Source of the DNA: Candidatus Latescibacterota bacterium | GTDB lineage: Bacteria; Latescibacterota; UBA2968; UBA8231 | Direction of reading: 5' to 3' | NCBI GenBank assembly: GCA_965242865.1 | Contig: CBDETK010000013.1 | Span: forward strand, 1,120,001-1,184,000 | DNA: 64,000 bases | In this document: one piece after another, positions 1,262 to 18,241 of the stretch | How positions within the stretch are numbered: the first letter of the stretch is position 1 | Layout: each line of letters starts with the position of its first letter | Position numbers and translations under genes: made by a program | Notes under the pieces: generated by a model | What the model was told of the DNA's origin: nothing | What the model saw: the letters and a program-made list of their open reading frames with translations, nothing else | Databases searched by the model: none

Positions 1262-1385
1262 TCGTTGGGCGCACCCCCCGTTGGGCGCACCAATAAACCC
1301 CTCCGCCGCCGCTTCCGCTATTGGGCGCGTCCCCCGTTGGGTGCGCCCCCCGTTGGGTGCGCCCCCTGTGGCGCACCAATACCCC
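1262..1385. repeat. Cluster of degenerate ~16-bp REP-like repeats (CGTTGGGYGCRCCCCC)
   Basis: About five imperfect copies in the intergenic region. Confidence 0.65.
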
Positions 1386-1396
1386 CTCCTCTACGA

Positions 1397-3118: not shown

Positions 3119-4330
3119 TCAAAGCGCAGACACCGGAATTGACAAGGCCGCTTCCGCCAGCGGCAGCGATTGTTCGGCCAAACAGACCACGCCGCCGCTC
3201 CCTACAGGCCGGTTTAATTTTTTCAATGCTTGGAAGTGCCGGACGTGGTTTTTAGTGGGCGAAGCGGTCTTTTTGAACTCCAGCGGATAGATCGCGCCAT
3301 CCTGCAGCACGAGCAGATCAATTTCTTTGCCATCTCGATCCCGATAATAATAGAATGGGGCTAGACGCCCGTTGTGCCAGTAACTCTTCAGCAGTTCGCT
3401 CACGATCCAAGACTCCAAGATGGGGCCGGACATGGCCCCGGCTTCGAGCGTCTCCGGGCTAGCCCACTCGGTCAGGTAGGCGCACAGCCCGGTATCGACA
3501 AAATAGAGCTTGGGGCTTTTCACCAGCCGCTTGGTGAGGTTGGTGTAATACGGCTCCAAGAGATAGACCATTCCAGCAGTCTGTAAGATCGACAGCCATG
3601 TTTTCGCGGTATTGGGCGCGACATCCGCATCGCGCGCCAAGTCCGAAAAGTTGACTATTTGTCCGGTTCGGGCCGCCGCGGCCCTCAGAAAGCGAAGAAA
3701 GGCCAGCTCATCGCCGACTCGGGCGAGGTCGCGAATATCGCGCTGGAGGTACGTTTGCAAGTACGCGCTGTAAAAAAGGCCCCAATCCATTTGCTCGTCC
3801 AGCGCAATGGCGGGGAAATCGCCGCGCCATATAATCCGGTAGAGTTCCTTTAAGCCGAGCGAGCCGCCCGTGCGGACCCTATCGCCCACAGCGTCCGGGA
3901 TCGGCAAAAACGGCCCATCCGCCCGCCCTAGCCGCTCGCGCCGCGAAAGCCCCAAAAGCTGCACAATGCCCACTCGCCCGGCCAAGGATTCGGACGCGCC
4001 TTGCATCAAGTGAAAGTGCTGCGAACCTGTGAGCCAAAACTGACCAGGCGTCCGCTCTCGATCTACGGCCATTTTGATATAGGGCAAAAGCTGCGGCGCG
4101 TATTGGATTTCGTCGATGAGCACCGGCGGCGCGAACCGCTGCATGAACAGGGCGGGGTCTTCGCGGGCCAAGCTCTGGACTAGGGGATCGTCTAAGGTGA
4201 CGTAGGTGCGGTCTGATTGGCTTGCGTGTTTCAACAGGGTCGTCTTGCCGACCTGTCTGGCCCCGCAGACCATGAGAACGGGGAATCGGCAAGACGCAAC
4301 AAAGGCTTCGAGCGTTCGGGAGACGTACAT
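3119..4330 (-). CDS. AAA_14 ATPase with DUF4143 domain
   Basis: GARQVGKT Walker A, LIDEIQ, LTGS, ESLAGR, KSPKLYFVDTGL, EIDL...EFK. Confidence 0.92.
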   Translation of the reverse strand: MYVSRTLEAFVASCRFPVLMVCGARQVGKTTLLKHASQSDRTYVTLDDPLVQSLAREDPALFMQRFAPPVLIDEIQYAPQLLPYIKMAVDRERTPGQFWLTGSQHFHLMQGASESLAGRVGIVQLLGLSRRERLGRADGPFLPIPDAVGDRVRTGGSLGLKELYRIIWRGDFPAIALDEQMDWGLFYSAYLQTYLQRDIRDLARVGDELAFLRFLRAAAARTGQIVNFSDLARDADVAPNTAKTWLSILQTAGMVYLLEPYYTNLTKRLVKSPKLYFVDTGLCAYLTEWASPETLEAGAMSGPILESWIVSELLKSYWHNGRLAPFYYYRDRDGKEIDLLVLQDGAIYPLEFKKTASPTKNHVRHFQALKKLNRPVGSGGVVCLAEQSLPLAEAALSIPVSAL

Positions 4331-4341
4331 GCTGACCTCAA

Positions 4342-4394
4342 ATCGGCTGATTTGCAGTGAGATTGCAAATTAGCCGATATGCAGGTGCTGTCAA
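4342..4394 (-). promoter_or_regulatory. Sigma70-like promoter overlapped by a 15-bp-arm palindrome (candidate operator)
   Basis: ATCGGCTGATTTGCA-N7-TGCAAATTAGCCGAT (1 mismatch) at 4342-4378; TTGACA on the minus strand at 4394-4389 followed 16 nt later by TAATTT. Confidence 0.55.
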
Positions 4395-4448
4395 GGAGAG
4401 GCTGTCGTACCCTTTAGAATATGTCGGCCAGCTTTAACGCGAAGCCCT

Positions 4449-4565
4449 TTATCCGGTGCCTGAAATTTTCAAGTTGTTCGGCCCGGCAATGACGAGGTGA
4501 TCTGGAAGTTCAAATTCTAAGTACTCGAATTTCTTAAAATTTTTGATAACCACTTTGTTAATCAT
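4449..4565 (-). pseudogene. Truncated N-terminus of an ABC/SMC-type ATPase (38 aa)
   Basis: MINKVVIKNFKKFEYLEFELPDHLVIAGPNN then unrelated LKISGTG-stop; breaks inside the Walker A motif; ATG overlaps the end of the upstream gene. Confidence 0.7.
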
Positions 4566-4920
4566 GCCGATTCTCCTTTGGAACAAAAAAGGGAGGGCTT
4601 TCGCTCCAGACGATGCGCCCTTTTCGCAGCCAATAGTGGCAGCGGCAGGGCAAGCCGGTTACGTGGACTGAGGGTGACAGTGAAATCTGTCCGTCCACAT
4701 GTTCCGTTATGCTCCACCGTTTGTCAACTTGAGGCGACACATCCAAGTGAACAACTTGTCGGCATGTCCTGCGAGGGCAGACAATAGCTGCATAAAACGG
4801 GTGTTTGCGTCCGCCAATGATGTACACCGTATTTTTGTGGAGATCGTCCGGCAAATCCTCTACCCACTCCGTGCGGTAAGGACGGAAACGCGCCCATATA
4901 TTGAAAATCCACCTAAACAT
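4558..4920 (-). CDS. DUF6527-like putative zinc-binding protein
   Basis: VEDLPD...CPxxxC...SLSPSV...CRCHYWLRKGRIVW pattern; coupled to the E1 gene. Confidence 0.8.
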   Translation of the reverse strand: MFRWIFNIWARFRPYRTEWVEDLPDDLHKNTVYIIGGRKHPFYAAIVCPRRTCRQVVHLDVSPQVDKRWSITEHVDGQISLSPSVHVTGLPCRCHYWLRKGRIVWSESPPFFVPKENRHD

Positions 4921-6307
4921 GGCTAGTGTTATTTTTCACGAGTAAGCTCCTGTCGCCTGTTCCCATGTATCGTACCATCAATGGATGTGGCCCTCCCTCG
5001 TCCGCGGCGTTTTCATAGCATCCATGCACTAGGCGAAATCGTTGAGTCGCAAATTCGGCATTGGCGTCAAAGCGATAGGCATGAATGCGGGCCATGAAAT
5101 CGTTAAACGCCATACACGCCGCCTGCATGTTGACAGACATAACCGCCGGTTGTTCCTCGCCGACAGCGGCTAAATAGCCGGCCACGCGCTGTTGTTGGTA
5201 GTACGCCGGGTCCTTTCGCTGCCAATTTTCGGCCGTCACCTGTTCCATAGTGTACGCGCCGCGCGATAGCAGGCTTTCACCTTCTGGGTGAATGTAATGC
5301 GATACGGCATCGGCGGCGGTGATACCACCTTTCCCGTCGGCCTCAAGGTGGACTCCTACGTCAAAATAGGGAATCAGATAAGCACTTGCTAGGCAATCGA
5401 GATGATACCGGCCAAAGGCGGAATCCACGCAGCCGAAGATCACATCGCAATCGACTAAAGCGGCGACGACATCCGGTGAATCCGTCAATCCTTGGTGAGC
5501 ATCTACTTTGGTTCCCAGGCCGATCTTCTGAATAGCTCGTTCAATCGCCAGCACCTTTGGCTGCTGTGTGCGGGCGTCATCTATAGTACTGTTGATGAGG
5601 CGGTTCAGGTTTTTCTCTTCTACTATATCATCGTCCACAATGACCAACTCGCTCACGCAATTACGCATGAGTAGTTCAATGATTACGCTTCCTGTGCCAG
5701 AACAGCCCACAACCCCCACTCGCATAGTGTGCAATAAATCCAACGTGCCCTTGCCGAAGGTTTGCGCTAGCTTTTCTTGGTACGCCGTTTGGCTTCGGGA
5801 TTTGTGGGCCTTCCAGATGTGGATATTATCGCCGACTGCGGAGACCGTTGGCATATCGGCGAACGTTCCATGTGCGTCCACCGTGCGGGCCGCGATCTGG
5901 CCATTCGACAACATAATGGCGGAGCCATTTGGCCGCCCGTCGTCAAACCAATTGCATACAGAAGAAAACAATTCCCGGTCGTTGCGGTCGTCAATTTTTG
6001 AAAACCGGCCACATCCTTTGGGATGGGAATGAATAGTGACTACAGACTGTCCATTCCGATCTATATCGCAGATTTTTTCTGGCGGCAGGCAGTCGCCAAA
6101 AGGCCAAGCGACAAAATCCTCTTTTCTGACCGACAGATGATGTGGCGGATACAAAACATCCGCAACGATGAGGCGGCGATGTCTCTTCCCTGTCCCTTGG
6201 TTGCACAACAAAATGGCGGCGGCCTCCAGCCCGTCTCCGGGGAAAAGGTGGTTTTTAACCGCCTCATATTGACTCGCGGTCATGGTCAGGATAGCGGTTG
6301 TCATCAC
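4913..6307 (-). CDS. JAB peptidase-ThiF/E1 fusion
   Basis: N-terminal EAAA...HSHP...FSKIDD JAB motif; C-terminal VGVVGCSGTGS, DDDIVEEKNLNR, FGCVDS ThiF motifs. Confidence 0.88.
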   Translation of the reverse strand: MMTTAILTMTASQYEAVKNHLFPGDGLEAAAILLCNQGTGKRHRRLIVADVLYPPHHLSVRKEDFVAWPFGDCLPPEKICDIDRNGQSVVTIHSHPKGCGRFSKIDDRNDRELFSSVCNWFDDGRPNGSAIMLSNGQIAARTVDAHGTFADMPTVSAVGDNIHIWKAHKSRSQTAYQEKLAQTFGKGTLDLLHTMRVGVVGCSGTGSVIIELLMRNCVSELVIVDDDIVEEKNLNRLINSTIDDARTQQPKVLAIERAIQKIGLGTKVDAHQGLTDSPDVVAALVDCDVIFGCVDSAFGRYHLDCLASAYLIPYFDVGVHLEADGKGGITAADAVSHYIHPEGESLLSRGAYTMEQVTAENWQRKDPAYYQQQRVAGYLAAVGEEQPAVMSVNMQAACMAFNDFMARIHAYRFDANAEFATQRFRLVHGCYENAADEGGPHPLMVRYMGTGDRSLLVKNNTSHV

Positions 6308-6690
6308 CCGACTTCGGCTTTTAGCTGATTTTCTACATACTCAATATGACTGACGATGGAATCGACCCCCGGCTGCCATGAGTAATGACGCGACCAACGC
6401 TGCCAAGTCTGACCAAAATGAATCTCAGAGGCCAGAGCACCTATTGCTGAACTATCTGATTTATCAAGCGGAGGATAAAAGTAAAACATGTCCAACATCG
6501 ATCCGGGATAGCCGCTTGGAATGAGCACCATTAGCGTGGATTTTTCTACCGCATAGCCTTTGGGAATGGGAAAGTCGTCAATGAGTAGGCCATACTTACC
6601 ATTACCCTCGGCGACCTTCTTCCATTTGGACGGATAACTCGCATCCAGATATTCGTTATCCTCCGGCGGCAACTCGTAGGGATTAACCAT
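6304..6690 (-). CDS. Prokaryotic E2/UBC-like protein (family E-like), cysteine-free
   Basis: IPKGY...LIPSGYP...LDMFYFYP...WQRWSRH...W.PGVD; start at ATG 6690 overlapping the Ubl stop. Confidence 0.82.
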   Translation of the reverse strand: MVNPYELPPEDNEYLDASYPSKWKKVAEGNGKYGLLIDDFPIPKGYAVEKSTLMVLIPSGYPGSMLDMFYFYPPLDKSDSSAIGALASEIHFGQTWQRWSRHYSWQPGVDSIVSHIEYVENQLKAEVG

Positions 6691-7408
6691 GGCCTTGCTG
6701 TGCCTGTCGCCGAACGGTCTCAAAGCGTTCAATGCCGGGACGGGATAAATCGACCGCATCGTTGGCCTTGATTCTTTCTCTTTTACCGCCGTGCAGCTTC
6801 TGGTTGAGCGACCATTCGTCATCGCGCTTGTCGGCCAGTACCAAAATACCGGCCCCGGTGATTTCTGCAGAATCCACGGTGTACTTGTCGCCGTCTATGC
6901 GGATGCGGTATTGGTGCCCTTTGGGTGGGCGGCGGTCGTTCTTGCCGCACTCCTCAAGGTCAATGGCGTCGTCCGAGGTGGGCGGGATGACGAAAAACGA
7001 GTCCGCATCTTGGACGACAATCGTCATGTCATCCGCAATTTCCACATCCACACCGCCTTCAATGTCGGCAAATAGACGCCCCTGCGGGAACTTGTCGTCC
7101 CGCTCTTTGAGGGCTTTGCCGGTAGTTTTTGCTTGTGGAAGGGCGAGGTTGCGCGATCCATTGAATTCTGGCCGCACTTCATTGCGCAACGGCGGGTTAT
7201 CCCCGATCGAGCTTTTCCCCACTACAAACCGTTCTCCACCGCGAATAATGAGATGCTCCCCTGCCAAGAGAGGAATATCTATGCCATCTTCGCGGCTCAG
7301 AAAAATTCGTCCCTCGCCGCAATCGGCGATTTCATAGAGCGCGTCAATGGAAACAAGCCCCGCACGGATTGGGGTTTCCTGCCCGTCAATTTGGATTGTT
7401 GGTTTCAC
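6683..7408 (-). CDS. Multi-ubiquitin domain protein (about three beta-grasp repeats)
   Basis: Repeated I.IDG...ITG..I...VDL..PGIERF units; C-terminus QAQQG-HG; GTG start with GGAGG RBS. Confidence 0.85.
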   Translation of the reverse strand: MKPTIQIDGQETPIRAGLVSIDALYEIADCGEGRIFLSREDGIDIPLLAGEHLIIRGGERFVVGKSSIGDNPPLRNEVRPEFNGSRNLALPQAKTTGKALKERDDKFPQGRLFADIEGGVDVEIADDMTIVVQDADSFFVIPPTSDDAIDLEECGKNDRRPPKGHQYRIRIDGDKYTVDSAEITGAGILVLADKRDDEWSLNQKLHGGKRERIKANDAVDLSRPGIERFETVRRQAQQGHG

Positions 7409-7438
7409 GTTGATTTCCTCCGGTGTTGTGTTTAATGG

Positions 7439-7463
7439 GTCTCTTGTCTAGTGTACAAGAGAC
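7439..7463. promoter_or_regulatory. Perfect inverted repeat, candidate operator between the divergent Ubl operon and the higA-like gene
   Basis: GTCTCTTGT-N7-ACAAGAGAC. Confidence 0.55.
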
Positions 7464-7561
7464 GCCCGCAAGCGCAAGAGGCCATTTGCGATCCAAGTGG
7501 AACGGCAGCGGCGCGAGGAGAGACGCTCGCAGACCCAACTCGCTATAGCAAGGAGTACCCC

Positions 7562-7951
7562 ATGGCTGAAGTACTCGATTTTACCAAACCTCATTTGCTG
7601 AGAAACGAAGAAGAATACGATATCGCTGTCGCCGAGATCGATGCCCTTCTCGACGCCGAGCCGCAGCCTGGGTCGGAAGAATATGAGCGGCTGGAGTTTT
7701 TATCGGTTCTAGTGGAGGCTTACGAAGACGCGCATCTTCCGGCCTACGCAGAGGCCACGCCCCAAGAAGTGGTCGATTTTATGCTGGAGCAGAAGGGTTT
7801 TTCTCGGGACGATCTGGCGCAGTGGCTGGGCAGTAGAATCCGAACAGCGGAATTTTTCAATGGCATCCGTCCGCTCTCTATCCGGCAGATTAGCACATTG
7901 AGAGCACATCTAGGCATTCCAGCGGACTTACTGGTGGACCTTTCCTCATAG
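7562..7951 (+). CDS. HigA-like antitoxin / HTH regulator (orphan)
   Basis: RNEEEYD.A...LE.L..LVEAYE...FMLEQKG...DLA..LGS.....E..NG.R.LS...LGIPADLL; AAGGAG RBS before ATG 7562. Confidence 0.82.
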   Translation: MAEVLDFTKPHLLRNEEEYDIAVAEIDALLDAEPQPGSEEYERLEFLSVLVEAYEDAHLPAYAEATPQEVVDFMLEQKGFSRDDLAQWLGSRIRTAEFFNGIRPLSIRQISTLRAHLGIPADLLVDLSS

Positions 7952-8035
7952 TTATTCCACGGCATCGGAGCACACAAGCGTCCCTCAACAATCTAAAGCA
8001 CCTCTGACCAGTCTCATTGAAACAAGCGGAGCTAG

Positions 8036-8269
8036 ATGATGACCGAAACGAATCCAACTCAAGAACGGCCTTACCCCTTAGACCACGAGGGACGTATTGC
8101 TCGCCTAGAGGGAGTGGTCGAACAAATCGGCGTCCGGTTAGGGCGGCTGGAAACGAAGATTGACGCGGTGGAGGCCAAAATCGACGGGCTGTACCGTTGG
8201 GTAGTGCCGTTGCAGATTACGACGATCTTGGCTATCGCAGGGCTTGCGTTTAAGGCATTCGGCGGCTAG
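8036..8269 (+). CDS. Small coiled-coil protein with C-terminal TM helix
   Basis: Heptad RIARLEG...RLETKIDAVEAKID followed by a hydrophobic tail; GGAG RBS. Confidence 0.7.
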   Translation: MMTETNPTQERPYPLDHEGRIARLEGVVEQIGVRLGRLETKIDAVEAKIDGLYRWVVPLQITTILAIAGLAFKAFGG

Positions 8270-8287
8270 TACGTTCTTTCAAGCGGG

Positions 8288-8410
8288 GAGCAGAGCATCG
8301 AGTACGGCGCGGGCCTGTGTGCCGTAGCGGGTGAATAGGTCCCGCTTCTTCACGTTCTCAGCCCGCTCGCGCCGAGTGAGCGGGGCTGGCCATAGACCAC
8401 GTAGCAGATC
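8288..8410 (-). pseudogene. Degenerate ~123-bp copy of the hsdR 3' region
   Basis: Aligns by eye with 20083-20206, with scattered substitutions and a 1-nt deletion. Confidence 0.85.
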
Positions 8411-8414
8411 CCAA

Positions 8415-8448
8415 ATATTGTAGAAATTGTCAAAGTATCCTACAATAT
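8415..8448. promoter_or_regulatory. Inverted repeat upstream of the sigma-factor gene, candidate operator
   Basis: ATATTGTAG-N16-CTACAATAT perfect arms enclosing TTGTCA. Confidence 0.45.
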
Positions 8449-8541
8449 ATGGTATTCATCCTCTATAAACTTCGCGGAAGAATCGAGCCATAGAGGGCCG
8501 GAGAGCGCATTAACGACCATGGAGCAAGATTGTGAAGACAA

Positions 8542-8585
8542 CTTTCCGGTTTCCCTTCTGCAATGCGATTATTAGAGAGTAGAAG
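8542..8585 (+). promoter_or_regulatory. Putative alternative-sigma promoter, copy 1
   Basis: CTTTCCG-N17-CGATTA-TTAGAGAGTAGAA; same motif and spacing at 13551. Confidence 0.7.
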
Positions 8586-8632
8586 GGGCCTTATGTGCTC
8601 GGAATCCGCCGTTATTTAAGGAAAGGAAGGTA

Positions 8633-9376
8633 ATGGCTTGCCCATTGACTAAACGAAAAGCGACTGGGGACCTATATATCCGTCCTCTTCAAGTAGAGAG
8701 ACAGATTGATGAGGTCCTTTCCCAAGACCCATCGACGCTCCGACGACGCCTCATTGTTGCAGACCCCCAAGCGTCCGACTATCTAAGTTCGGAGTGCCTT
8801 GTCCATCTCGCTCGCTACTACCATAGGCACGGCGACGACTCTAAGACTAATGCGGTACTCTCCGTCTTACTAGGTCGCTGTGAAAAAACCCTATCGGCCA
8901 AAATCCCAGACAATGAACTCCCGACTGCGAGGGAGGTACGAGAGGAAGTGATTGGACAGTTCGGCGAGTTATTTGCTACCGATGGTACGCAAGAGAACCG
9001 CGACGACCTTGACTATTTTGAGTGTCGCTTCAATGGGGCGTTTCGCACTTTTTACATCGATATCGTAAGAAGTGAAACAGCCCCTCTAAAGCGATTAGCC
9101 CCCCTGCCAGACCAAGCCGACGACACCCACAAGGAATTGCAGAGTCCAGAAACAGCAGATAGTGCTTTATTCTGCAAAGAACTCCACGAAGCGATTGATG
9201 CTTTGCCGGATGACATGCGCAAGGCTGTCATCCTTTGCCATATCGAGGGATACAAAATCGAATCTCAGAACCCCAACGAGGCGACAGCAGCGACGATCTG
9301 CAAAGTATCAGGCCGAACCATTCGTAACCGTCTTTTGAGGGCAGCAGGGAAACTTTCTAAATTTAAGGATCAATAA
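8633..9376 (+). CDS. Sigma-70/ECF-like RNA polymerase sigma factor
   Basis: C-terminal region-4-like ELHEAIDALPDDMRKAVILCHIEG...CKVSGRTIRNRLLRA; AAGGAAGG RBS. Confidence 0.72.
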   Translation: MACPLTKRKATGDLYIRPLQVERQIDEVLSQDPSTLRRRLIVADPQASDYLSSECLVHLARYYHRHGDDSKTNAVLSVLLGRCEKTLSAKIPDNELPTAREVREEVIGQFGELFATDGTQENRDDLDYFECRFNGAFRTFYIDIVRSETAPLKRLAPLPDQADDTHKELQSPETADSALFCKELHEAIDALPDDMRKAVILCHIEGYKIESQNPNEATAATICKVSGRTIRNRLLRAAGKLSKFKDQ

Positions 9377-9387
9377 TTCGGATATTT

Positions 9388-9412
9388 TAAGTCTTTGTTT
9401 ATCAATGACTTA
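9388..9412. promoter_or_regulatory. Palindromic IHF-like site
   Basis: TAAGTCTTTG-TTTAT-CAATGACTTA contains WATCAANNNNTTR; a similar palindrome lies at 55583. Confidence 0.5.
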
Positions 9413-9436
9413 ACGTTAAAATACTAAGGAGGAGAC

Positions 9437-10108
9437 ATGTCCGTGACCCCAACCCTCAATGAGTTACCACTACGCGAGGTGTTGTATGAGTTTTCGCTAG
9501 CGAAGACCGTACCTGATGCAGACCTGCTCGACGATTTCGTTCAGCGGTTTCCGCAGTATGCTGACCGCCTCACGGAATTCGCCATCGAACTCGCTATAGA
9601 TGCTCTCCGGCCCGAGCCCGAGATCGACGCGAAGGCGACGGTTGATCTGAACCGTGTGAGTCCCGTTGTCTCGCGGGCAATGAGCCGATACCTGAATCGG
9701 CTACACGCCGTGCGCCAAACAACCGAGCCGACTGTCGACCGCGCTTCGACACCAGAAGTTGCAGATGCTCCAAATCCCTTCGCTAAACTAAACCGATCAG
9801 CGTTTCGGGAGTTAGCAGAGCGGCTCGGCGCGAACACTGTGTTCGTTGCCAAGCTGCGAGACCGCCAAGTCAAGCCGGATACCATCCCAAGCAGTTTTTT
9901 GCGGTACCTTGCAGATGCGCTTGGGACTTCACTTGACTTATTAACTGCCCACTTTGCTGTACCAAGCGCGGAACTTGGGAGCCGACAGTTTTACAAGGCC
10001 GATGACAAGCCTGATGGCAGTCAACGCCAGAGCTTCGTCGAGGCTGTTAAGAGTTCGGCTCTCAACGAGAACCAGCAGCACCAACTTCTTTCTAAGTTTC
10101 TAAACTGA
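9437..10108 (+). CDS. Hypothetical protein with XRE-like HTH (candidate anti-sigma / peptidase substrate)
   Basis: FRELAERLGANTVFVAKLRDR...LRYLADALGTS HTH-like segment; AAGGAGG RBS; stop overlaps the next start. Confidence 0.65.
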   Translation: MSVTPTLNELPLREVLYEFSLAKTVPDADLLDDFVQRFPQYADRLTEFAIELAIDALRPEPEIDAKATVDLNRVSPVVSRAMSRYLNRLHAVRQTTEPTVDRASTPEVADAPNPFAKLNRSAFRELAERLGANTVFVAKLRDRQVKPDTIPSSFLRYLADALGTSLDLLTAHFAVPSAELGSRQFYKADDKPDGSQRQSFVEAVKSSALNENQQHQLLSKFLN

Positions 10109-13100
10109 TGGACGCATTCGAGCCGATCCGTAAGTCCGCGGCGTGTCTGCACAAGGCTATCGCGGCGCGGACGGACCCTCTAGATACTACGGCACTTATT
10201 ACGGTCGCTGTGGCTCATCTAGATCTTGAACTCGTCTGTCTTGAGCCGGGTGATCCTGCTCTAAAAAATGCCCAGGCGGTGTTCGACGAACAGAGCGGTA
10301 CGATCTGCTGTGAAAAGATAGGGGATGGCACTGACCTTGCCTTGCTTGTGGCTCACGAACTTGGACATGCAGTTGTCCATGCTGGTTCGGCAGTTTGCAA
10401 GACGGATGACATTGATCCAGCTCGTTCGACTGAGACGGTCCCCGTTGGCTTGCAACGTGTCGAGGATTATGGGGCGCGGGAAAGGCGCGAATTACAGGCC
10501 AATGTTTTCGCTCGGGAGCTTCTCTTGCCCCAGAGTCTTGCACGTCGGCTCCATATTGAGGAGACCATGACCGCCTCGGCTATCGCCTCGCGCATGGGCT
10601 TGCCAAAGGCACTCGTCCGACAGCAGATATTTGACGCTCTTCTACTTCCGACGGAAGAGGAAGTAACTCCGGCGGAGACTTCGACCGATACACCGCGTTC
10701 GGATCCCTCGCAGGACCGGGCAGCCGCACATCGTGGTGCCCCGTTCCTGCTTCAGGCCGGGCCGGGAACCGGAAAAACACGGACGCTGGTAAAGCGCGTA
10801 AAATCGCTTCTAGCGGAGGACATTGATCCTTCCTCCCTACTCATCCTGACCTTCTCAAATCGGGCCGCTGGCGAGTTGTTGGAACGGCTTATGGCCATAG
10901 TCCCCGAGGCCGCTGAGCGTATTTGGATCGGAACGTTCCATGCTTTCGGACTTGATCTGATACGACGTCACTATGACCGTCTTGGCCTGTCCCCTAATCC
11001 AGTCCTGTTTGACCGCAGTGATGCGATTGATATGCTGGAGGAGCTCCTCCCAACGCTGCCTCTCGTCCACTACCGCAACTTATGGGATCCGACGATAGTG
11101 CTGCGAGAAGTGCTCCCTGCCATCTCTCGTGCTAAAGATGAGCTCGTAGATCGAAGCCGCTACCGAGAGCTCGCCGAAGCTATGCGAGCGGACGCAGACG
11201 ACAATGACGCTCGCGTGGCAGCCGAGAAGTGCTTGGAGATCGCCGACATTTATGATCTCTACGAAAGTGCCATGAGCGAACGGGATGCTGTTGATTTTGG
11301 CGATCTCATCATGCGGCCGGTATTGCTCTTAGAATCCGATCCAGCACTCAAGCACACTGTTCAGTTGCGGCACCGACACCTTCTAGTTGATGAATATCAG
11401 GACGTAAATCGGGCGAGCGCATGTTTGCTAAAAGCGATTGCTGGTGATGGCAAGCGTCTATGGGTGGTCGGCGACTCGCGTCAATCCATCTACCGCTTTC
11501 GCGGAGCGTCCCCTATCAACATGGCTCGCTTTGGCGACGACTACCCGGGGGCAGTAGTTGACCAACTCTCCGTCAATTACAGATCGACAGACCAGATCGT
11601 CGCCAGTTTCGTCAAGGTAGCTCCCCGGATGGGTGCATCCAAAGGCATGTTGCCACTTGCTCTTGACGCTGACCGAGGTTTGGGACCCGGAAAACCAGAA
11701 ATTCGGTGCTATGACACTCCCGACGACGAAGCTGGAGGTATCGCCGGAAGCATCCAAGAACTCAAAAGGGCGGGGGTTTCTCTCCGCGATCAGGCTGTGC
11801 TTTGTCGCTCGAACCGCCATCTGAATGAAATCGCCACAGCACTTGAAGCACACGGCATTCCTGCACTGCATCTCGGCAGTTTATTTGAGCGTGAGGAAAT
11901 ACGCGATTTGCTAGCACTTCTCAGCCTCGCAGTTGATCGGTTGGGTAATGGTCTCGTGCGGGTGGGAGTAATGCCGCGCTATGATCTCTCGTTGCAAGGC
12001 ATATATACCGCCTTGCACCACCTGCGGGATAGCAAGCAATCGGCCCTTTCGGGTATAGGGACGCTTGCTAAGGCTCAAGGTCTCTCGCCTGACGATTCAT
12101 CGGCATTTGCCCGCCTTGCACAGGATCTATCGGGACTCTCCCCAAGCATTTCCGCATGGGAATTTCTCTCAACGTATTTGCTTGACCACACTAATCTCGT
12201 GTGCGAGATGGCTCAAGCCACTACAGTCACCGACCGCATTCGGAACGTTGCTATTTGGCAATTTCTTAACTTCGCCCGCGAACGGCTCAAGACAGACAAG
12301 GGGTTGCTGATTCAGCGGATGCTGGATCGTATTCGGCAACTCGTACTGCTCGCCGAAGAACGGGATTTGCGCCAAATGCCTGCCGCTGCCCTCCATCTAG
12401 ACGCAGTGCGGCTGATGACCGTTCATGGTAGTAAGGGGCTAGAATTTGAAGCAGTCCATGTCCCTAGACTGACGACTGGAAATTTCCCTTCGTCGTACCG
12501 TGGCGTAAGATGCCCACCACCTATCGGTATGACTGAAGGCGCAGAGAGCTCTTCGGTCTCAAAAGAGGCCAAACAGAAACACAATCACGAGGAAGAGTGC
12601 TTGTTTTTTGTTGCCCTCTCGCGAGCACGAACCCATTTACGCCTTTACTTGGCGCATCGGAACTCTAACGGCAGGAACTGCTCGCCATCGCCTTTCTTGA
12701 ATTGGCTGCCAACGGGGACAATCGACAAAGTTGCCCATCCGGTGATCCTGCCACCGCCAGCCAACATGCACAGCCCAGGGTCTATCCAAGTGAGGCGACC
12801 CACCGAATGGCACGTCACGGACAGTACGCTTATCTCCTACGAGAAATGTCCCCGTCGCTTCTTCTATACCCATGTGTTGGGGCTCGGTGGTGCCCGTAAA
12901 GCGACCGCCTATTCGCAGACTCAGGACTGTCTCTACAAACTCATTCGGTGGGTGGGCGAGCGTCGGCTAACAGCCGAACCTACACTTAGCGAGACTGAAG
13001 ACGCTTTCGATACGATCTGGCATGCACACGGGCCAATCTCCCACAAGTTCGCTGACGAATACCGCCGCCTCGCCTTGCGGTTAATAGGTGTCTTAGTTAA

Positions 13101-13536
13101 TGCCAACACTGGACAGCATTTCCGTGAAGTCAAACCGTTGGTGATTGATTTCTTAAATGGTCGCGTGTCCATAGAGCCAGATGCGATCATCAACTTACCG
13201 GACGGAAAAGTCGCTTTGTGCAAAATCCGCACCGGCGATAAGCGCAACAACGAATATAATCGCCTTGACTACGCACTCTATCAGTTGGCCAGTCAGCAAC
13301 ACTTCGGTAACCATTCAGTGACTCAGGTTCTGTACCTTACAAACACAAACGGGATGTTCAAAGATGTGCAGATCTCGCCGAAAACGCTCAACAATCGGCG
13401 GTGTACGATTGATGGGATGCTCGGTGAGATTGCTAAGGGGAAGTTCCCACCCAAGATCAATGAAATGACATGCCCGCGATGTCCGCACTTTTTCATCTGT
13501 GATGCTATGCCTCGTGGATCTCTGACGCTCCCATAA
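10108..13536 (+). CDS. ImmA/IrrE metallopeptidase-UvrD helicase-PD-(D/E)XK-like fusion
   Basis: AHELGH and ELQANVFARELLLP; AGPGTGKT, VDEYQD, GDSRQSIYRFRGA, NYRS, TVHGSKGLEF, VALSRAR; YEKCPRRF...CPRCPHFFIC. Confidence 0.9.
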   Translation: MDAFEPIRKSAACLHKAIAARTDPLDTTALITVAVAHLDLELVCLEPGDPALKNAQAVFDEQSGTICCEKIGDGTDLALLVAHELGHAVVHAGSAVCKTDDIDPARSTETVPVGLQRVEDYGARERRELQANVFARELLLPQSLARRLHIEETMTASAIASRMGLPKALVRQQIFDALLLPTEEEVTPAETSTDTPRSDPSQDRAAAHRGAPFLLQAGPGTGKTRTLVKRVKSLLAEDIDPSSLLILTFSNRAAGELLERLMAIVPEAAERIWIGTFHAFGLDLIRRHYDRLGLSPNPVLFDRSDAIDMLEELLPTLPLVHYRNLWDPTIVLREVLPAISRAKDELVDRSRYRELAEAMRADADDNDARVAAEKCLEIADIYDLYESAMSERDAVDFGDLIMRPVLLLESDPALKHTVQLRHRHLLVDEYQDVNRASACLLKAIAGDGKRLWVVGDSRQSIYRFRGASPINMARFGDDYPGAVVDQLSVNYRSTDQIVASFVKVAPRMGASKGMLPLALDADRGLGPGKPEIRCYDTPDDEAGGIAGSIQELKRAGVSLRDQAVLCRSNRHLNEIATALEAHGIPALHLGSLFEREEIRDLLALLSLAVDRLGNGLVRVGVMPRYDLSLQGIYTALHHLRDSKQSALSGIGTLAKAQGLSPDDSSAFARLAQDLSGLSPSISAWEFLSTYLLDHTNLVCEMAQATTVTDRIRNVAIWQFLNFARERLKTDKGLLIQRMLDRIRQLVLLAEERDLRQMPAAALHLDAVRLMTVHGSKGLEFEAVHVPRLTTGNFPSSYRGVRCPPPIGMTEGAESSSVSKEAKQKHNHEEECLFFVALSRARTHLRLYLAHRNSNGRNCSPSPFLNWLPTGTIDKVAHPVILPPPANMHSPGSIQVRRPTEWHVTDSTLISYEKCPRRFFYTHVLGLGGARKATAYSQTQDCLYKLIRWVGERRLTAEPTLSETEDAFDTIWHAHGPISHKFADEYRRLALRLIGVLVNANTGQHFREVKPLVIDFLNGRVSIEPDAIINLPDGKVALCKIRTGDKRNNEYNRLDYALYQLASQQHFGNHSVTQVLYLTNTNGMFKDVQISPKTLNNRRCTIDGMLGEIAKGKFPPKINEMTCPRCPHFFICDAMPRGSLTLP

Positions 13537-13550
13537 ATTTTTTGCGACGG

Positions 13551-13591
13551 CTTTCCGTTTTCTTCCGTTCTATCCGATTAATAGAGTAGAA
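13551..13591 (+). promoter_or_regulatory. Putative alternative-sigma promoter, copy 2
   Basis: CTTTCCG-N17-CGATTA-ATAGAGTAGAA upstream of the Ubl gene. Confidence 0.7.
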
Positions 13592-13648
13592 AGCAGAGAC
13601 AGGCAATGGAGCCTATATCTAGCTCTAAGGTCAAGGAGGCCTTATATA

Positions 13649-14155
13649 ATGGATCGTATCGATGTGTTTTACCAATGTGAGGGGATCAGCGAGATCGGGC
13701 AGATCGATGTTGACGCTGACGCTACCTTCGCGACGGTCAAATCCGAGCTCGCCGACAAGCACGGCCTCGCCGAGGAAGTGATCATCTCTCTAGAGGATGA
13801 TGACGAACGAATCGACGAAAACAGGCAAGTGAAGGAATTCGCCGACCTGACCGTCATTATGGTCCACCTGAATCGCTGCCGTTGCATCGAAGCCAGTGTG
13901 AACTATAACGGTCGTACTGTCGATCACAGCTTCGGACCGAGCGCGACTATCGCCCGTGTCAAAAAATGGGCGGCTGAGGAGTATGGAATGAGTCCCGAAG
14001 ATGCCGGTGAACATTCCCTGCAAATCGTCGACACTCAAAACAGGCCAGCACCGGGGACTCATATTGGTAGGCTGGTTTGCTGCCCTGATTGCAACTTGGC
14101 CTTCGACCTCGTTGCCGACGAGCGCGTGAACGGGTCGACCGGGAGCACAGCTTGA
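13649..14155 (+). CDS. bilA: Ubiquitin-like protein of a Bil/ISG15-like defence system (two beta-grasp domains)
   Basis: V.YNG....[12 protein letters not shown]...LV..ERVNG followed by a short tail STGSTA; first gene of a Ubl-E2-JAB-E1 operon. Confidence 0.8.
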
Positions 14156-14619
14156 GCCCCCCTGACCAACGGGCATTCGAGGCGGACGTGGCAAAGGCCA
14201 CGTTCCGCCTTGGAGAACGACAAGGGCGTTGGTGCTTGATCTGCATAGATTGGCCCTTCGTCTTGATCTCTGTGACTGCAAAAGACAGACGCGAATATGT
14301 GCTACGCTTCAACTGTGCAGGTTATCCGCAAGACCCGCCCACGGGCGGCCTGTGGGATCGCACCCGGAATGCGATCTTGGAACCCAATTGCTGGCCACAG
14401 GGCCAAGGGGGTCGCGTTTCGGCAGTTTTCCGCTCCGACTGGAAGAGTGGATCTGCTTTGTACTTACCTTGCGACCGTGAAAGCATTGCTGGACACGATG
14501 GCTGGCGAACCGAGATGCCGTCAAAAATCTGGCGTCCGGCTGACGGGATCATCCAATACTTGGAAATCGTTTATGAACTTCTCCATAGCCCAGATTATAC
14601 GCCGCTGCCTTGCACCTAA
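14152..14619 (+). CDS. bilB: E2-like conjugating enzyme of the Bil system
   Basis: [17 protein letters not shown]...WP...ALYLPCDR (candidate catalytic Cys); TTG start overlaps the Ubl stop. Confidence 0.78.
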
Positions 14620-15091
14620 GCATGAACTGTCCTGTTCTTGGTTTCTCTGGCGTCGCTTGCTCACCGGCTTACGGGAGCGCGGTCACAGCGAGTCGCGGGA
14701 AAGCGGTGCTTTTCTACTAGGTTACCATAACGGCCAACGTGCCCGCATCGTTGATTTTGTCTTGTATGATGATCTCGATCCGCACTGCCTTGATACCGGC
14801 ATCGTCCGATTCGACGGGCGATATTTCGGAAAACTTTGGGATATTTGCAAAAACCGTGATCTGATTGTCGTGGCCGATGTTCATGTCCATCCGAGGGGAT
14901 CACAGCAAAGTGAGTCGGATCGCACCCATCCTATGATTTCGTGTAAAGGGCACTTGGCACTAATCCTGCCGCGTTTTGCAGCCAATCCGCTCCCAAGGCG
15001 CGAAATTGGTATCTACCGATACCAAGGGGCCAAGCAGTGGCAGAATATTGCGTCCACTGACCGGAGGGCTTTTTTCCATATCGGCCTATAG
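14573..15091 (+). CDS. bilC: JAB-family deubiquitinase of the Bil system
   Basis: ESGAFLLG...DVHVHP...QSESD JAB motif. Confidence 0.82.
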
Positions 15092-15101
15092 GGAATTATC
15101 T

Positions 15102-16466
15102 ATGAACGCTAAACCGAATGCCGACAGCCTGCACCGCTTGGTTAAGTACGCGCTCGATAGCGGAGAGGCCAAGACTCTCGCCGAGGCGGAGAAGCTATTT
15201 CGTGGCTATCGCCTTGCGCTTACCATTCACGGGGCCGAATCTCGAAGTTCACTCAATCAAGTCGCGTTGTTGACGGCGGTTGCTCTTGGCCGCCGTGTAT
15301 TCCTCGGCGGAGTTTCCGTAGAAGGCGACTTAGATGTACCGCTGAAAGTACCGCTACCGCTCCGCTCTAGGCTTCACGAGGCTGTGGGCGATCTCGGTGG
15401 ATCGGTTACGCCTTCTGACGACGAAACGCCGACCATTGCTATTGGTGGCGGCCCTCGCCCACGACAGCCTGGGTTTCACATCCGTACGGCAATCGCCGGA
15501 TGGCGCGGTGGCATCCTTCCGGCGCACTCAGAATTGGTGCCGACCCCTGGACCTACGATTCCGTTAGCGGCTATGCTGTCCGCTGGCCTCGCGGTCAATG
15601 AAGCCTTCCAGTTTGTGGACAGCGGCGGTCCTGCGGTGGGACGACGACCAATAGGATTGTCGCTGTGGCGGCCCGATGCAGACTGGCTGGCATCCGACTT
15701 AGACGGGCCTCAGATTGCCTATCTTCCATCGCGGCTTTGGCTGATCGGGCTCGGGCACCTAGGACAAGCGTATCTTTGGGGGCTTGGGTTACTGCCCTAT
15801 AAGGATCCGGGGAAGCTCTCTCTCGTCCTGCAAGATATAGATAAGATCACGCCATCGACCGAAAGCACATCGATCTTGAGCGGCGCGGGCACGGTGGGCC
15901 AAAAAAAGACCCGTGCTATGGCAGCTTGGGCAGAAAAACGTGGGTTTGCGACAGCGTTGCACGAGCGACTGTTCGATGCCAGTTTCCGCCGCCAAGATAG
16001 AGAACCAACCGTCGCGTTGTGTGGTTTGGATAATGCGCCAGGACGGCAAGCACTTGATCAAGTGGGCTTTGAGTTGATTGTCGAGGCTGGGCTTGGGAGA
16101 GGGCAACAAGACTTCCGTACCATGCGCCTGCACGTACTACCGGGGGCACGTTCGGCGAAGGAGCTTTGGAAACTGGCAGCACCTGCTGAAACAGCTACGG
16201 ATCGCCCCGCCTATCAAGAGATGCTCAAAAGTGGCGAATTGGATCGTTGCGGCGTTACGCTTCTAGCCGGTAAGGCGGTCGGTGCTCCCTTTGTAGGCAC
16301 CGTGGCTGCTACGCTGGTACTGTCTCAAGTGCTACGCTTACTCCACGGCGAGAGCCCCTATCAGCTAATCGATCTTAATCTGCTCTCTGTTGACCATTGC
16401 TCTACCGTTCCTAGTTCCAAGTGCTTTCAGTCTCTCAACCCCGGATACACTGCCGAACTCTATTGA
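15102..16466 (+). CDS. bilD: E1-like activating enzyme of the Bil system
   Basis: Inactive-like N-terminal half plus LIGLGHLGQ, LQD.D, CGLDN, EAGLG, LDRCG, GAPFVG. Confidence 0.8.
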   Translation: MNAKPNADSLHRLVKYALDSGEAKTLAEAEKLFRGYRLALTIHGAESRSSLNQVALLTAVALGRRVFLGGVSVEGDLDVPLKVPLPLRSRLHEAVGDLGGSVTPSDDETPTIAIGGGPRPRQPGFHIRTAIAGWRGGILPAHSELVPTPGPTIPLAAMLSAGLAVNEAFQFVDSGGPAVGRRPIGLSLWRPDADWLASDLDGPQIAYLPSRLWLIGLGHLGQAYLWGLGLLPYKDPGKLSLVLQDIDKITPSTESTSILSGAGTVGQKKTRAMAAWAEKRGFATALHERLFDASFRRQDREPTVALCGLDNAPGRQALDQVGFELIVEAGLGRGQQDFRTMRLHVLPGARSAKELWKLAAPAETATDRPAYQEMLKSGELDRCGVTLLAGKAVGAPFVGTVAATLVLSQVLRLLHGESPYQLIDLNLLSVDHCSTVPSSKCFQSLNPGYTAELY

Positions 16467-16573
16467 GGATTAAAAGATAAGATGCCGAACCTTAATTACA
16501 CCGCGAATAGCTTCCCTTCGAGTTGGGGCCGCTACTCCATGGCTCGCGTTCCATTGAGTAGTAAGACCGTTCT

Positions 16574-18241
16574 TCAAACGACGTTGGTTGCGGCTACAGC
16601 GGAGGCGTCGTGATGTTTCCTTTTATCGACGAGGTGTTGCTCCAATTGGTCAATCAGCCCCATCAGTTCATCGACTTTGGCGACGATGCGGTGCTGTTCG
16701 GCAGTCGGCGGGAGTGGCACAGGCGCACGAAGGAGGTCGGTATCATTGATGGCGGGATACGCGACCCCTTTCATTTGGGCCGTGACGAAATCGACAAAAA
16801 ATGGAGCGCGGAGATAGAAGAACAAGAGACGGCTATGCACCCCAGAGTGCGGATGTAAAACGGCGAATGCCGTGGAGGCAATCGGCGTTGGAGAGTATTC
16901 GCAATCAACTACGGCGATGTTGAGTAGATATGGACGAACAGTAGAGTAGATGACCGATTCAAGACGAACCAACTTTCGGGCACGGGAAGGAGCCTCGCTG
17001 GGGTCGAGAATAGGAACTGCGCTGATGATTGCACCGCGTTTGTTGTCAATCGCGCTTACGTCAATGTACGAGAACGTTTTATCAGGCACCTTCTGGCCGA
17101 GATCGTGCGCCAGATCGTGGAGCCGCACCCAAGTCCAAGACCGGGGAATCTCAAAAGGAATCTCGGCGGACATAAGAGGGCCATAGGACTTGCGCTTTCG
17201 CACCTTCTTCTTTTTAACCAGTTCCGCCTTCTCAGCAACGATCAATTCGAGCAATCGGCCCGCTGGTTCGTCCCCCGAATCCTGCTCCACCAACCGCCCC
17301 CGTACCGCAAGCTGAAGCACGGCCTCGCGCAACGGCACCAGATCGGCCGGATCCGTGAACAAGTCGTCCATCCGCTCGGCAATGCACATCCATGCAGCCG
17401 AGACCTCTTTGGGGGTAGCAGCATTCCGAAGCGTGGCGAGTGCTGAGTCTCGGCCGGCGATGCGGGCGGCCTCGCGGCTACTCCGCGCAGCCTCCAGCCG
17501 GTCAATTAAACCCATCAATTCATCGACTTTGGCGACGATGCGGTGTTGTTCTGCTTCAGGCGGCAACGGAAATAGTGCTTGGCGAGCCTTGTCCGTTCCC
17601 AGTCGCGGCAGGTTCATGCCGTGTGTTGAGGAGTTGGCATACTGCACAAAGTACGGTGACTTCAATACAAGTCGAATGAATTGTGGAGTGAGACCGACGA
17701 ATCCTCTTATTGGCATTATCTCAGAAGTACATACACCATCTTCATTGGCGATAATTACCTTGTCGAGATACGGACGTAGCTTTCCGTATAAGACATCGCC
17801 TTTGTAGAAGCGATTTTTGGCACTCTTGAAGGGTCTCATTCCATAGCGCACCCGGTTAAGAAGCCGAGAAGACACCTTCTCTATATCTTCAAGTTCAAGT
17901 ACCCAGGTCTCTTTACTGACTTCGCTAGGCTCGGCTTTCTTGGTCGTCCCGTAACTAGTGATCTCCCCCAAGTGCGTCCATTCCCAACTGACGGGGATTC
18001 CAAAAGGAAACTCGGCGTCTTTTATCGTCGGTAGCGGTTTCCTCGTTCTGATCTGATGACTTCGACGCGCTTTTTCATCCGCAATGCGTTCCAGAAGCAC
18101 CGAGGCCGATTCGTCCCCCGCATCCTGCGGCACCAGCCTCCCCCGCACCGCAAGCTGAAGCACCAACGCCCGCAGCCGCTCAACCCCTCCCGGCGCCTCG
18201 GCGATCACATCAAACGCGGCGATGAACTCCCCCGGCGTCAT
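16574..18241 (-). CDS. hsdS: Type I R-M specificity subunit
   Basis: Duplicated LQLAVRGRLV.QD, PF.IP.SW.W and PLPP.AEQHRIVAKVDELM conserved regions around two TRDs. Confidence 0.93.
   Translation of the reverse strand: MTPGEFIAAFDVIAEAPGGVERLRALVLQLAVRGRLVPQDAGDESASVLLERIADEKARRSHQIRTRKPLPTIKDAEFPFGIPVSWEWTHLGEITSYGTTKKAEPSEVSKETWVLELEDIEKVSSRLLNRVRYGMRPFKSAKNRFYKGDVLYGKLRPYLDKVIIANEDGVCTSEIMPIRGFVGLTPQFIRLVLKSPYFVQYANSSTHGMNLPRLGTDKARQALFPLPPEAEQHRIVAKVDELMGLIDRLEAARSSREAARIAGRDSALATLRNAATPKEVSAAWMCIAERMDDLFTDPADLVPLREAVLQLAVRGRLVEQDSGDEPAGRLLELIVAEKAELVKKKKVRKRKSYGPLMSAEIPFEIPRSWTWVRLHDLAHDLGQKVPDKTFSYIDVSAIDNKRGAIISAVPILDPSEAPSRARKLVRLESVIYSTVRPYLLNIAVVDCEYSPTPIASTAFAVLHPHSGVHSRLLFFYLRAPFFVDFVTAQMKGVAYPAINDTDLLRAPVPLPPTAEQHRIVAKVDELMGLIDQLEQHLVDKRKHHDASAVAATNVV

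Follow-up and report, generated by a model that had tools for sequence, protein, structure and literature searches.

A seven-gene form of the Bil ubiquitin-like conjugation operon with an apparent sigma switch, and its probably incidental Bub neighbour, in a Latescibacterota defence hotspot

The operons closest to the locus described here, positions 4449-16466 of a 64,000-nucleotide stretch from the genome of a Candidatus Latescibacterota bacterium (assembly GCA_965242865.1, contig CBDETK010000013.1, 1,120,001 to 1,184,000; the whole stretch is called the window, and positions without further label refer to it), belong to two bacterial families that conjugate a ubiquitin-like protein (Ubl), Bil and Bub. 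In the available part of the literature, Type I Bil from Collimonas sp. OK412 and others is a four-gene operon, bilABCD, encoding in this order the Ubl, the conjugating enzyme (E2), a JAB peptidase and the activating enzyme (E1). The same sources describe protection against phage by conjugation of BilA to phage proteins for the Collimonas operon and four other systems, with phage structural proteins as the targets in Collimonas, and the accessible text of Millman et al. has Bil cloned under an inducible promoter, not its native one (10.1101/2022.05.11.491447). Bub operons, formerly 6E/DUF6527, were defined by Ye et al. (bioRxiv 2024, PMC11601596); that preprint describes an oxyester chemistry, through Tyr in the E1 and Ser in the E2, states that Ubl and E2 are fused in every Type I operon and has no phage protection yet shown for Bub, while relatives of the Bil operon are described as using Cys thioesters. 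Two regulators of immune operons also matter for comparison: CapH/CapP, in which a helix-turn-helix (HTH) repressor is cleaved by an M78 peptidase on DNA damage, and DdvS/DdvA, which the available text on the CBASS (an anti-phage signalling system based on cyclic oligonucleotides)-CRISPR island of Myxococcus xanthus (PMC11506125) presents as a sigma factor of the extracytoplasmic function (ECF) type with a co-encoded transmembrane anti-sigma factor over defence genes.

Bub and Bil at this locus are both of the known kinds. The original prediction, made from the DNA letters, had described two unrelated ubiquitination machineries in divergent operons about 6 kb apart, each with its own Ubl, E1, E2 and JAB, next to a type I restriction-modification (R-M) system in a region of lower GC content. 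In its essentials this description is confirmed: Pfam for Bub and PADLOC for Bil recover all four components on both sides, the R-M genes hsdS, hsdM and hsdR occupy 16574-22245, and the GC content is 0.50-0.58 across 4001-17000 (1-kb windows) against 0.63 at 1-3000 in the flank. The word “unrelated” applies to the families, which are distinct, and not to their parts, which come from the same E1, E2, Ubl and JAB superfamilies; each operon does have a JAB of its own, that of the Bub operon being fused to the E1. What changes most is the view of the interval, for the 6.2 kb between the operons (7408 to 13649) are no spacer and are mostly part of Bil. The locus is probably best read as a whole as a mosaic of a Bub operon and a seven-gene Bil with a proposed regulatory switch.

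The plus-strand operon at 13649-16466 reads as a Type I-like BilABCD operon, as the four PADLOC Bil profiles all match at full length and in order. Residue conservation, computed over 45-77 relatives, agrees with this assignment. BilA, which in Type I (ISG15-like) Bil has two ubiquitin-like domains, here matches its 162-position profile throughout, with one weak, sub-threshold ubiquitin match in Pfam (residues 18-75), and its C-terminal NG, at N161-G162, is conserved in 71 sequences and followed by variable tails of 0-6 residues, here STGSTA. BilB keeps C107 and H115 in at least 97% of 74 sequences; in BilC, the JAMM residues E43, H104, H106, S115 and D116 are conserved; and in BilD, C383, the glycines G216/G218/G221 and other columns are invariant in 45 sequences. 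The catalytic Cys residues of BilD and BilB are assigned by this conservation and not by alignment to a solved Bil structure, a PDB sequence search with BilD having given no match. Gene order, E1 adenylation site and Cys, E2 Cys with a nearby His, JAMM motif and a Ubl glycine with a removable tail are thus all those of the published Type I form. By analogy with Collimonas, BilC would trim the tail of BilA, and BilD and BilB would, each by its Cys, conjugate BilA to phage structural proteins.

The published form has four genes, whereas this locus has three more directly upstream: sigL, p223 and a gene for a helicase-nuclease. A search for BilD relatives, limited to one genome per species, returned 565 loci, the best 80 of which (52-80% identity) were examined; these span Alpha-, Beta-, Gamma- and Deltaproteobacteria, Acidobacteriota, Binatia, Latescibacterota and others. 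Linkage was counted in the 64 of the 80 loci with at least 6.6 kb of upstream DNA. All three upstream genes are present on the same strand and in the same order in 61 of these 64 loci, and the remaining 3 have none of them. In the related loci the sigL stop overlaps or abuts the p223 start, the helicase gene follows p223 by 3-10 nt, and about 115 nt separate the group from bilA. Within the phylum, the p223 profile is found in 4 of 168 genomes, exactly those with a close Bil, while the fifth Bil genome has a distant one. The right module therefore appears to be the seven-gene unit of sigL, p223, the helicase-nuclease gene and bilABCD, not the four-gene Bil, and the three upstream genes probably belong functionally to Bil.

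The exceptions L040, L038 and L036 fit a regulatory role of the module: the first has a CapP-like M78 gene in its place, the second keeps a 33-aa remnant of the helicase gene together with the bilA motif discussed below, and the third has an HTH gene resembling that at 7559-7951 of the window (41% identity, upstream of BilA). On a conjugative plasmid of Rhizobium leguminosarum, RefSeq calls the same seven genes six hypothetical proteins and one ATP-dependent helicase, and because the three genes are annotated only in this way, current defence-finding profiles miss them. No description of a sigma/helicase module with Bil was found in the available parts of the Bil, Bub and CapK/CapS literature or of Iyer et al. 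2006, supplementary tables aside. The seven-gene form with its apparent sigma switch is new as far as could be found.

SigL has the layout of an ECF (group 4) sigma factor, with only the sigma-2 and sigma-4 domains, judging by its predicted structure. The Pfam family Sigma70_r4_2 matches at 27.7 bits against a cut-off of 25.7, and all NCBIfam ECF models score below their own cut-offs. The AlphaFold model has a predicted local distance difference test score (pLDDT) of 89.7, and its top Foldseek matches in the PDB are ECF sigma factors aligned over both domains (170-205 columns, E 5e-4 to 1e-2), including E. coli sigma-E, AlgU, M. tuberculosis sigma-H, SigW and SigK; the template modelling (TM) scores of these matches are low (0.21-0.30) because the domain orientation differs. 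The partner p223 has no Pfam or NCBIfam family, even with Pfam at E 0.1, and its model (pLDDT 84.5) consists of two helical domains joined by a poorly predicted linker at residues 60-115, with no predicted membrane segment. When SigL and p223 are folded together the score is 0.85, against 0.00 for the best of 3 controls. The mark used is reached by 58 of 80 solved complexes and by 2 of 110 mismatched pairs, counts that were obtained with own alignments and are only rough. At least 69% of the contacts agree between runs, the partner pLDDT is at least 73, and the model lays p223 residues 8-96 on SigL residues 9-146. As there are solved sigma/anti-sigma complexes, this pass may be due in part to likeness to them. 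On this modelling p223 may be an anti-sigma factor, a candidate predicted to bind SigL.

The third protein combines, according to Pfam, the domains Peptidase_M78, UvrD-helicase, UvrD_C and PDDEXK_1. Its H83-E84-x-x-H87 motif, Walker A motif, DEYQD motif and the four Cys around the nuclease domain are each at least 97% conserved in 60 sequences. It shares its UvrD-type superfamily 1 (SF1) core and the C-terminal PD-(D/E)XK domain with four conserved Cys with Gabija GajB and the AddAB/RecB-type helicase-nucleases, and the PADLOC profile for GajB, the UvrD-type helicase of Gabija, matches at E 8e-72. Unlike these proteins, it has no GajA partner, carries an N-terminal M78 domain and is in fixed linkage with the sigma pair and Bil.

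The same promoter-like motif stands before both transcription units. An alignment of 59 intergenic regions before bilA gives TTTCCGG-TT, 12-13 variable bases and CGATCA. In the 64-kb window TTTCCG-N16-18-CGATYA has two matches against an expectation of 0.06, one 62 nt upstream of the sigL ATG and the other 69 nt upstream of that of bilA. Both places have an exact motif in 38 of the 61 seven-gene loci and one place has it in 8. In the whole genome the motif is found at 9 places, against 0 for the reversed control. Its layout, with a 17-nt spacer and one copy before the sigma factor's own operon, is that of an ECF-type promoter pair, and both copies are predicted promoters. The leader between the motif and the bilA start (13581-13648) is itself conserved across phyla and may contain a hairpin (in many loci CACTTC...GGAGTG) that overlaps with the ribosome-binding site.

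From these features we infer cleavage of p223, DNA sensing, promoter use and all phenotypes of the following scheme. p223 would hold SigL inactive until the large protein senses foreign or damaged DNA by its helicase-nuclease body, whereupon its M78 domain would cleave p223. The freed SigL would then fire both TTTCCG-N17-CGATTA promoters, thereby feeding back on its own operon and inducing bilABCD. For an anti-sigma factor co-transcribed with its sigma factor and a promoter shared with the target operon, what is found is overlapping genes, the binding model at 0.85 and the same motif before sigL and bilA. Such a switch would resemble IrrE/DdrO and ImmA/ImmR in its logic. That the three genes act as a sigma/anti-sigma/protease switch for Bil is somewhat favoured over its alternatives taken together. 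The chances are even for the broader proposal that a large Type I Bil clade, found in several phyla and on conjugative plasmids, is hard-wired to a cytoplasmic sigma/anti-sigma switch triggered by a single protein made of a UvrD helicase, a Cas4-like nuclease and an IrrE-type peptidase.

The likeness of the module to CapH/CapP is one of logic and not of membership; regulators of that type comprise a free-standing XRE HTH repressor and a free-standing M78 peptidase, divergent from the operon. Both have an M78/IrrE-like peptidase beside a small helical regulator upstream of an immune operon, but the peptidase here is one domain of a 1142-aa UvrD helicase-nuclease protein, p223, the presumed substrate, has no HTH match in Pfam and would not be a simple repressor but a protein predicted to bind a sigma factor, so that the output would be activation by a dedicated sigma factor. 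With DdvS/DdvA, as far as the available account of it reaches, the module shares an ECF-type sigma factor and a co-encoded (here candidate) anti-sigma factor over defence genes; it differs in that DdvA is a transmembrane protein while the p223 model has no membrane segment, and in that the proposed trigger is a cytoplasmic DNA-sensing protease.

The main alternative is that the three genes are an effector or a separate defence system, in which the helicase-nuclease attacks phage DNA under its own sigma control and is inherited together with Bil as a two-layer defence. This is unlikely, although not negligibly so, and the two readings are not mutually exclusive. The large protein keeps complete helicase motifs and its Cys-cluster nuclease domain and resembles the GajB-type helicases of Gabija, and a full helicase-nuclease exceeds the needs of a sensor, which favours an effector. 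Against this reading stand the presence of the same promoter-like motif before bilA as well as sigL, the restriction of p223 to this Bil clade within the phylum and the replacement of the module by a CapP-like regulator gene in L040; the M78 domain would also have no obvious role in a pure effector.

Several further observations weigh against the proposed switch. A Bil operon on a plasmid of Cupriavidus sp. EM10 (L095, 4647-6064; BilD 45% identical) has SigL and p223 homologs (E 1e-50 and 1e-38) and lacks the M78-helicase-nuclease gene, an unrelated 295-aa gene on the opposite strand lying between; no exact motif match is found in this plasmid locus. As only the sigma pair is present there, the switch, if real, can work without the helicase-nuclease, and such a variant also speaks for the effector reading. 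More distant Bil operons (G042, G238) lack the module. p223 has no significant Foldseek match, the best being a weak likeness to XRE/434-type HTH proteins at E 0.93, and belongs to no recognised anti-sigma family. Among the seven-gene loci, 15 of 61 have no exact match to the motif, and 7 of the matches in the genome lie outside the two sites, 4 of them on two small repeat-unit contigs. These 22-kb contigs (C9 and C12; L092, L093), 92-99% alike, are each built of roughly two copies of a 10.4-kb unit in tandem, with 99% self-identity, and might be small circular elements that the assembly went round twice; each unit has an exact TTTCCG-N17-CGATTA match and no homolog of a Bil or sigma gene.

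Work on Bil has until now concerned four genes driven by artificial promoters. Should the three genes upstream be its native sensor and switch, they could show how a cell decides when to tag phage proteins. The proposed circuit would then represent a novel mode of activating a ubiquitination-like immune pathway in bacteria, as well as a new kind of anti-sigma proteolysis, and a sigma-based circuit would join the known Cap regulators.

The minus-strand operon at 4558-7408 can be assigned by sequence to the Bub (6E/DUF6527) family as a Type I-like operon of bubA, bubB, bubCD and bubE. The 464-aa BubCD reading frame holds Prok-JAB (residues 18-114) and ThiF (176-320), a JAB-E1 fusion as in Bub Type I, and matches BubCD of Citrobacter sp. 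RHBSTW-00271 (PDB 9ea4_A) at E 7.1e-71, with E28, D106, R236 and Y378 aligned to the published E28, D104, R227 and Y370. BubB matches its Citrobacter counterpart (9eae_C) at E 1.1e-24, an Asp, S100 and H102 aligning with D299/S333/H335. The residues for the oxyester chemistry of Type I, Tyr on the E1 (Y378) and Ser on the E2 (S100/H102), are thus kept. BubE matches DUF6527 at 58 bits (cut-off 23.6), and its S85...C92...H95 spacing equals that of Citrobacter S92/C99/H102 (PMC11601596), an equivalence by position only; a PDB sequence search gave no match for BubE, so its Ser-His dyad rests on this spacing. A Cys cluster (Cys 48, 53, 92, 94) can be read from its sequence. A multi-domain Ubl ending in Gly is a further likeness to the Citrobacter operon. 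From this homology, the JAB domain of BubCD would trim BubA after QQG, removing the two residues HG and not a whole E2, the E1 domain would adenylate BubA and hand it by Tyr and then Ser oxyesters to targets, and BubE would remove it from them.

In the Citrobacter operon and, by the statement cited above, in all of Type I, Ubl and E2 form one BubAB pre-protein. Here they are separate overlapping genes: BubA ends in QAQQG-HG and a TAA at 6685-6683, and the ATG of BubB at 6690 lies in another frame and overlaps the BubA stop in ATGGTTAA. The Ubl ends named in the original prediction, QQG and VNG, exist as glycine motifs, each followed by a short tail in its reading frame. As Ubl and E2 are separate genes, the operon is filed as a split variant of Type I and not as a canonical member. 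The split is no local error, being common among homologs and also present in the congeners G139 and G130: among the 120 best BubA homolog clusters, 71 are stand-alone, 43 fused to E2 and 6 of other lengths, and in 60 of the 71 that stand alone the end comes exactly 2 residues past QQG. On a BubA tree, fused and split forms are interleaved with 11 changes, at least 2 of them forced by well-supported branches, counts that come from a quick tree only. The split form therefore seems to be a common and recurrent natural state, new as far as could be found, and the Ubl and E2 genes of Bub may alternate repeatedly between fusion and separation at a single fixed position, two codons past the reactive glycine. 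This corrects a published generalisation, and in the split form the job of the JAB domain can shrink to taking off two residues. A programmed frameshift joining BubA and BubB was considered and dropped, as nothing pointed to one and a form so widespread and uniform does not require it.

The operon could also be a silent or decaying passenger. Its congener G139, whose Bub proteins are 88-95% identical to those of the window, has a true CapH (HTH_3) and CapP (Peptidase_M78) pair upstream of bubA (L005, 9778-10639; a 93%-identical relative). Homology to this genome ends 85 nt upstream of bubA in the window (7494-8535 compared), where the pair is missing, and no CapH/CapP, CapW or CapK/CapS adjoins the operon, which therefore appears to have lost the regulators kept in G139. 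This loss speaks for a passenger, as does the phage protection that published Bub operons have yet to show (PMC11601596), but the loss of a repressor would raise expression and not silence it. The four reading frames are open, every checked catalytic residue is kept, and the proteins remain close to those of G139. Decay is improbable on these grounds. As to the possibility raised earlier that one of the two operons is non-functional, all catalytic residues checked are intact in both. In G139 a gene for a 552-aa AAA_15/AAA_21 ATPase, absent from the window, lies between PDC-S01 and bubE.

The window appears to be the union of two independent cassettes joined by recombination in or near hsdR. 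The repeat at 8288-8410, already noticed in the original prediction, is real and a 93% copy of 20083-20206 inside hsdR, and relatives hold this sequence only inside hsdR. The locus is a defence hotspot of the chromosome and lies downstream of a sodium:solute symporter gene; a tRNA scan found no tRNA gene in the window and hence no tRNA-linked island border. A DNA search across the genus (31 genomes) shows that what follows the symporter gene varies. In four congeners (G139, G130, G125, G123) the site is occupied by the Bub operon (88-93% DNA identity), with hsdM and hsdR behind it and no Bil, while G145 and G142 have the equivalent of 8536-16506 (79%), followed by hsdS, hsdM and hsdR and without Bub. 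The same block from the sigma gene to hsdR is present in G084, which belongs to another family of the class, and in G145 and G084 the R-M system travels with the Bil unit. Contigs of the sequencing run X1, from relatives at 90-95% identity in another study, join 4379 to 7544, without Bub, and 7543 to 8010, without the HTH gene; with short sides of 27 and 47 letters, these joins hint at gain and loss of cassettes at fixed junctions. The adjacency of Bub and Bil is very probably incidental and an instance of ordinary defence-island mosaicism.

It had been suggested that the two systems are paired, as complementary arms against different phage targets or through common substrates, peptidases or regulation. 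They do lie adjacent and divergent in one island, and the window Bub has no CapH/CapP of its own. Bub is absent within ~10 kb of all of the best 80 of the 565 Bil loci of other genomes, however, and congeners have either module alone at the same site. Both systems are complete and are likely to be orthogonal, as the catalytic residues kept are Cys in one and Tyr/Ser in the other; the C-termini of the Ubls (RVNG and QAQQG) also differ, and no SigL-type motif precedes bubA, the only matches in the window being at 8543 and 13552. Across the phylum, DUF6527 occurs in 28 of 168 genomes and BilB above its cut-off in 5, and both are found only in the index genome, adjacent, and in G084, more than 1.6 Mb apart. 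What pulls the other way is co-occurrence at the level of genomes: DUF6527 is in 11 of 55 Bil genomes (55 of the 80 were searched, 25 were not) against 13 of 401 sampled Alphaproteobacteria, which is above background with kinship and genome size ignored. BilB is in 4 genomes of the same sample, including the one on which it was centred, and 1 of the 4 also has DUF6527. This enrichment may reflect some functional affinity of Bil and Bub, but it is also what defence-rich genomes would give anyway. A functional pairing is thus very improbable, and while the orthogonality proposed earlier is likely, a meaning of the pairing as such is unsupported. The locus does provide work on E1/Ubl specificity with a convenient natural pair of probably orthogonal Ubl cascades in a single host.

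The contiguity of the two operons over 8288-8410 rests on the assembly, which is of metagenome-assembled genome (MAG) grade (13 contigs, 93.6% complete, 6.8% contamination), and on one contig of low depth from another study. The two hsdR-like copies have an exact stretch of 46 nt in common (8340-8385), and Logan contigs of the runs X8 and X9, from one study, cover 5425-8369 and 8356-17499 and break inside it; on 4000-17500 these contigs reproduce both sides without differences and give no verdict on the join. Run X11 of that other study has a 551-nt contig that covers 8018-8568 with no difference, a support that is weak because its depth is low (3.3) and no 31-mer spans the 46-nt node. That the adjacency is an assembly artefact at this repeat, or that the 11.8-kb segment between the hsdR-like copies is an excised circle in part of the population, is the least probable explanation of all, as the window lies inside a 5.6-Mb contig, the two copies match at only 93%, joining the other way would cut hsdR short and leave behind an 11.8-kb circle, and both modules are found independently at this site beside this R-M system in relatives.

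Table 1. Features of the locus, with window positions, strand and the evidence for each.
Feature	Position	Strand	Evidence
AAA_14/DUF4143 gene (PADLOC PDC-S01)	3119-4330		
BubE, DUF6527 serine-protease-like, 120 aa	4558-4920	minus	Pfam DUF6527, E 8.8e-16
BubCD, JAB peptidase-E1 fusion, 464 aa	4913-6307	minus	Pfam Prok-JAB and ThiF
BubB, E2-like, 128 aa from ATG 6690	6304-6690	minus	Pfam Prok-E2_E, E 3.7e-31
BubA, multi-ubiquitin Ubl, 241 aa	6683-7408	minus	Pfam Multi_ubiq, E 1.6e-16
HTH-like gene, 130 aa, divergent from BubA	7559-7951	plus	PADLOC PD-Lambda-2_B, N-terminal part, E 5e-29
Small open reading frame (ORF), 77 aa, hydrophobic C-terminus, putative gene	8036-8269	plus	ORF; weak sub-threshold coiled-coil Pfam matches
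Remnant of hsdR 3' region, 123 nt, module joint	8288-8410	minus	93% direct copy of 20083-20206 inside hsdR
Promoter-like motif TTTCCG-N17-CGATTA before sigL	8543-8571	plus	Pattern match
SigL, ECF-like sigma factor, 247 aa	8633-9376	plus	Pfam Sigma70_r4_2, model, Foldseek
p223, SigL partner, candidate anti-sigma factor, 223 aa	9437-10108	plus	Predicted binding to SigL
M78 (IrrE/ImmA-like) peptidase-UvrD helicase-PD-(D/E)XK nuclease fusion, 1142 aa	10108-13536	plus	Pfam
Second copy of promoter-like motif, before bilA	13552-13580	plus	Pattern match
BilA, Ubl, 168 aa	13649-14155	plus	PADLOC BilA, positions 1-162/162, E 1.2e-51
BilB, E2 (DUF7665)	14152-14619	plus	PADLOC BilB, E 4.9e-60; Pfam DUF7665, E 2.1e-67
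BilC, JAB/JAMM peptidase	14573-15091	plus	PADLOC BilC, E 4.1e-66
BilD, E1	15102-16466	plus	PADLOC BilD, E 8.9e-170
Type I R-M: hsdS, hsdM, hsdR	16574-18241, 18238-19746, 19909-22245	minus	Pfam and PADLOC

Gene starts in the Bil operon were refined from the sequence (BilB TTG 14152, BilC ATG 14573, BilD ATG 15102), and in BubB, whose open reading frame spans 6304-6822, ATG 6690 is the likely start. The HTH-like gene at 7559-7951 has no Pfam match even at E 0.1, and copies about 85% identical occur elsewhere in congeners. It was considered as a CapH and rejected, having no HTH match in Pfam, no adjoining peptidase and no link to Bub in congeners.

The genome also has a third Ubl operon, a Type II Bub at contig position 3.44 Mb (L004, 3428000-3446000, locus 8569-11550), with BubA (Multi_ubiq, 115 aa), BubBD (DUF6791 and ThiF, 390 aa) and BubE (DUF6527), and with an M78 peptidase gene and a small upstream open reading frame in the position of CapH/CapP. 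The presence of three Ubl-conjugation operons in one genome is new as far as could be found. Near this operon lie a second AAA_14/DUF4143 gene, a DEAD/MZB helicase gene and a gene for a large N6 methylase.

Beyond the two operons, an element of ~120 nt between hsdM and hsdR (19770-19899) has many copies in the genome and its congeners at 82-95% identity. It holds the palindromic GTCATTCCCGCGAACGCGGGAATCCAG, repeated at 22421-22447, and resembles a dispersed repeat of the repetitive extragenic palindrome (REP) or miniature inverted-repeat transposable element (MITE) type. Two tandem Uma2-family genes (putative restriction endonucleases) at 22499-23650 are 96% identical over a 300-nt stretch. 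Further on, at 25910-27738 and 29240-31257, lie two separate pairs, each of an AAA_21/AAA_15 ATPase gene and a DUF4276 gene, so that the defence-island character extends to ~31 kb.

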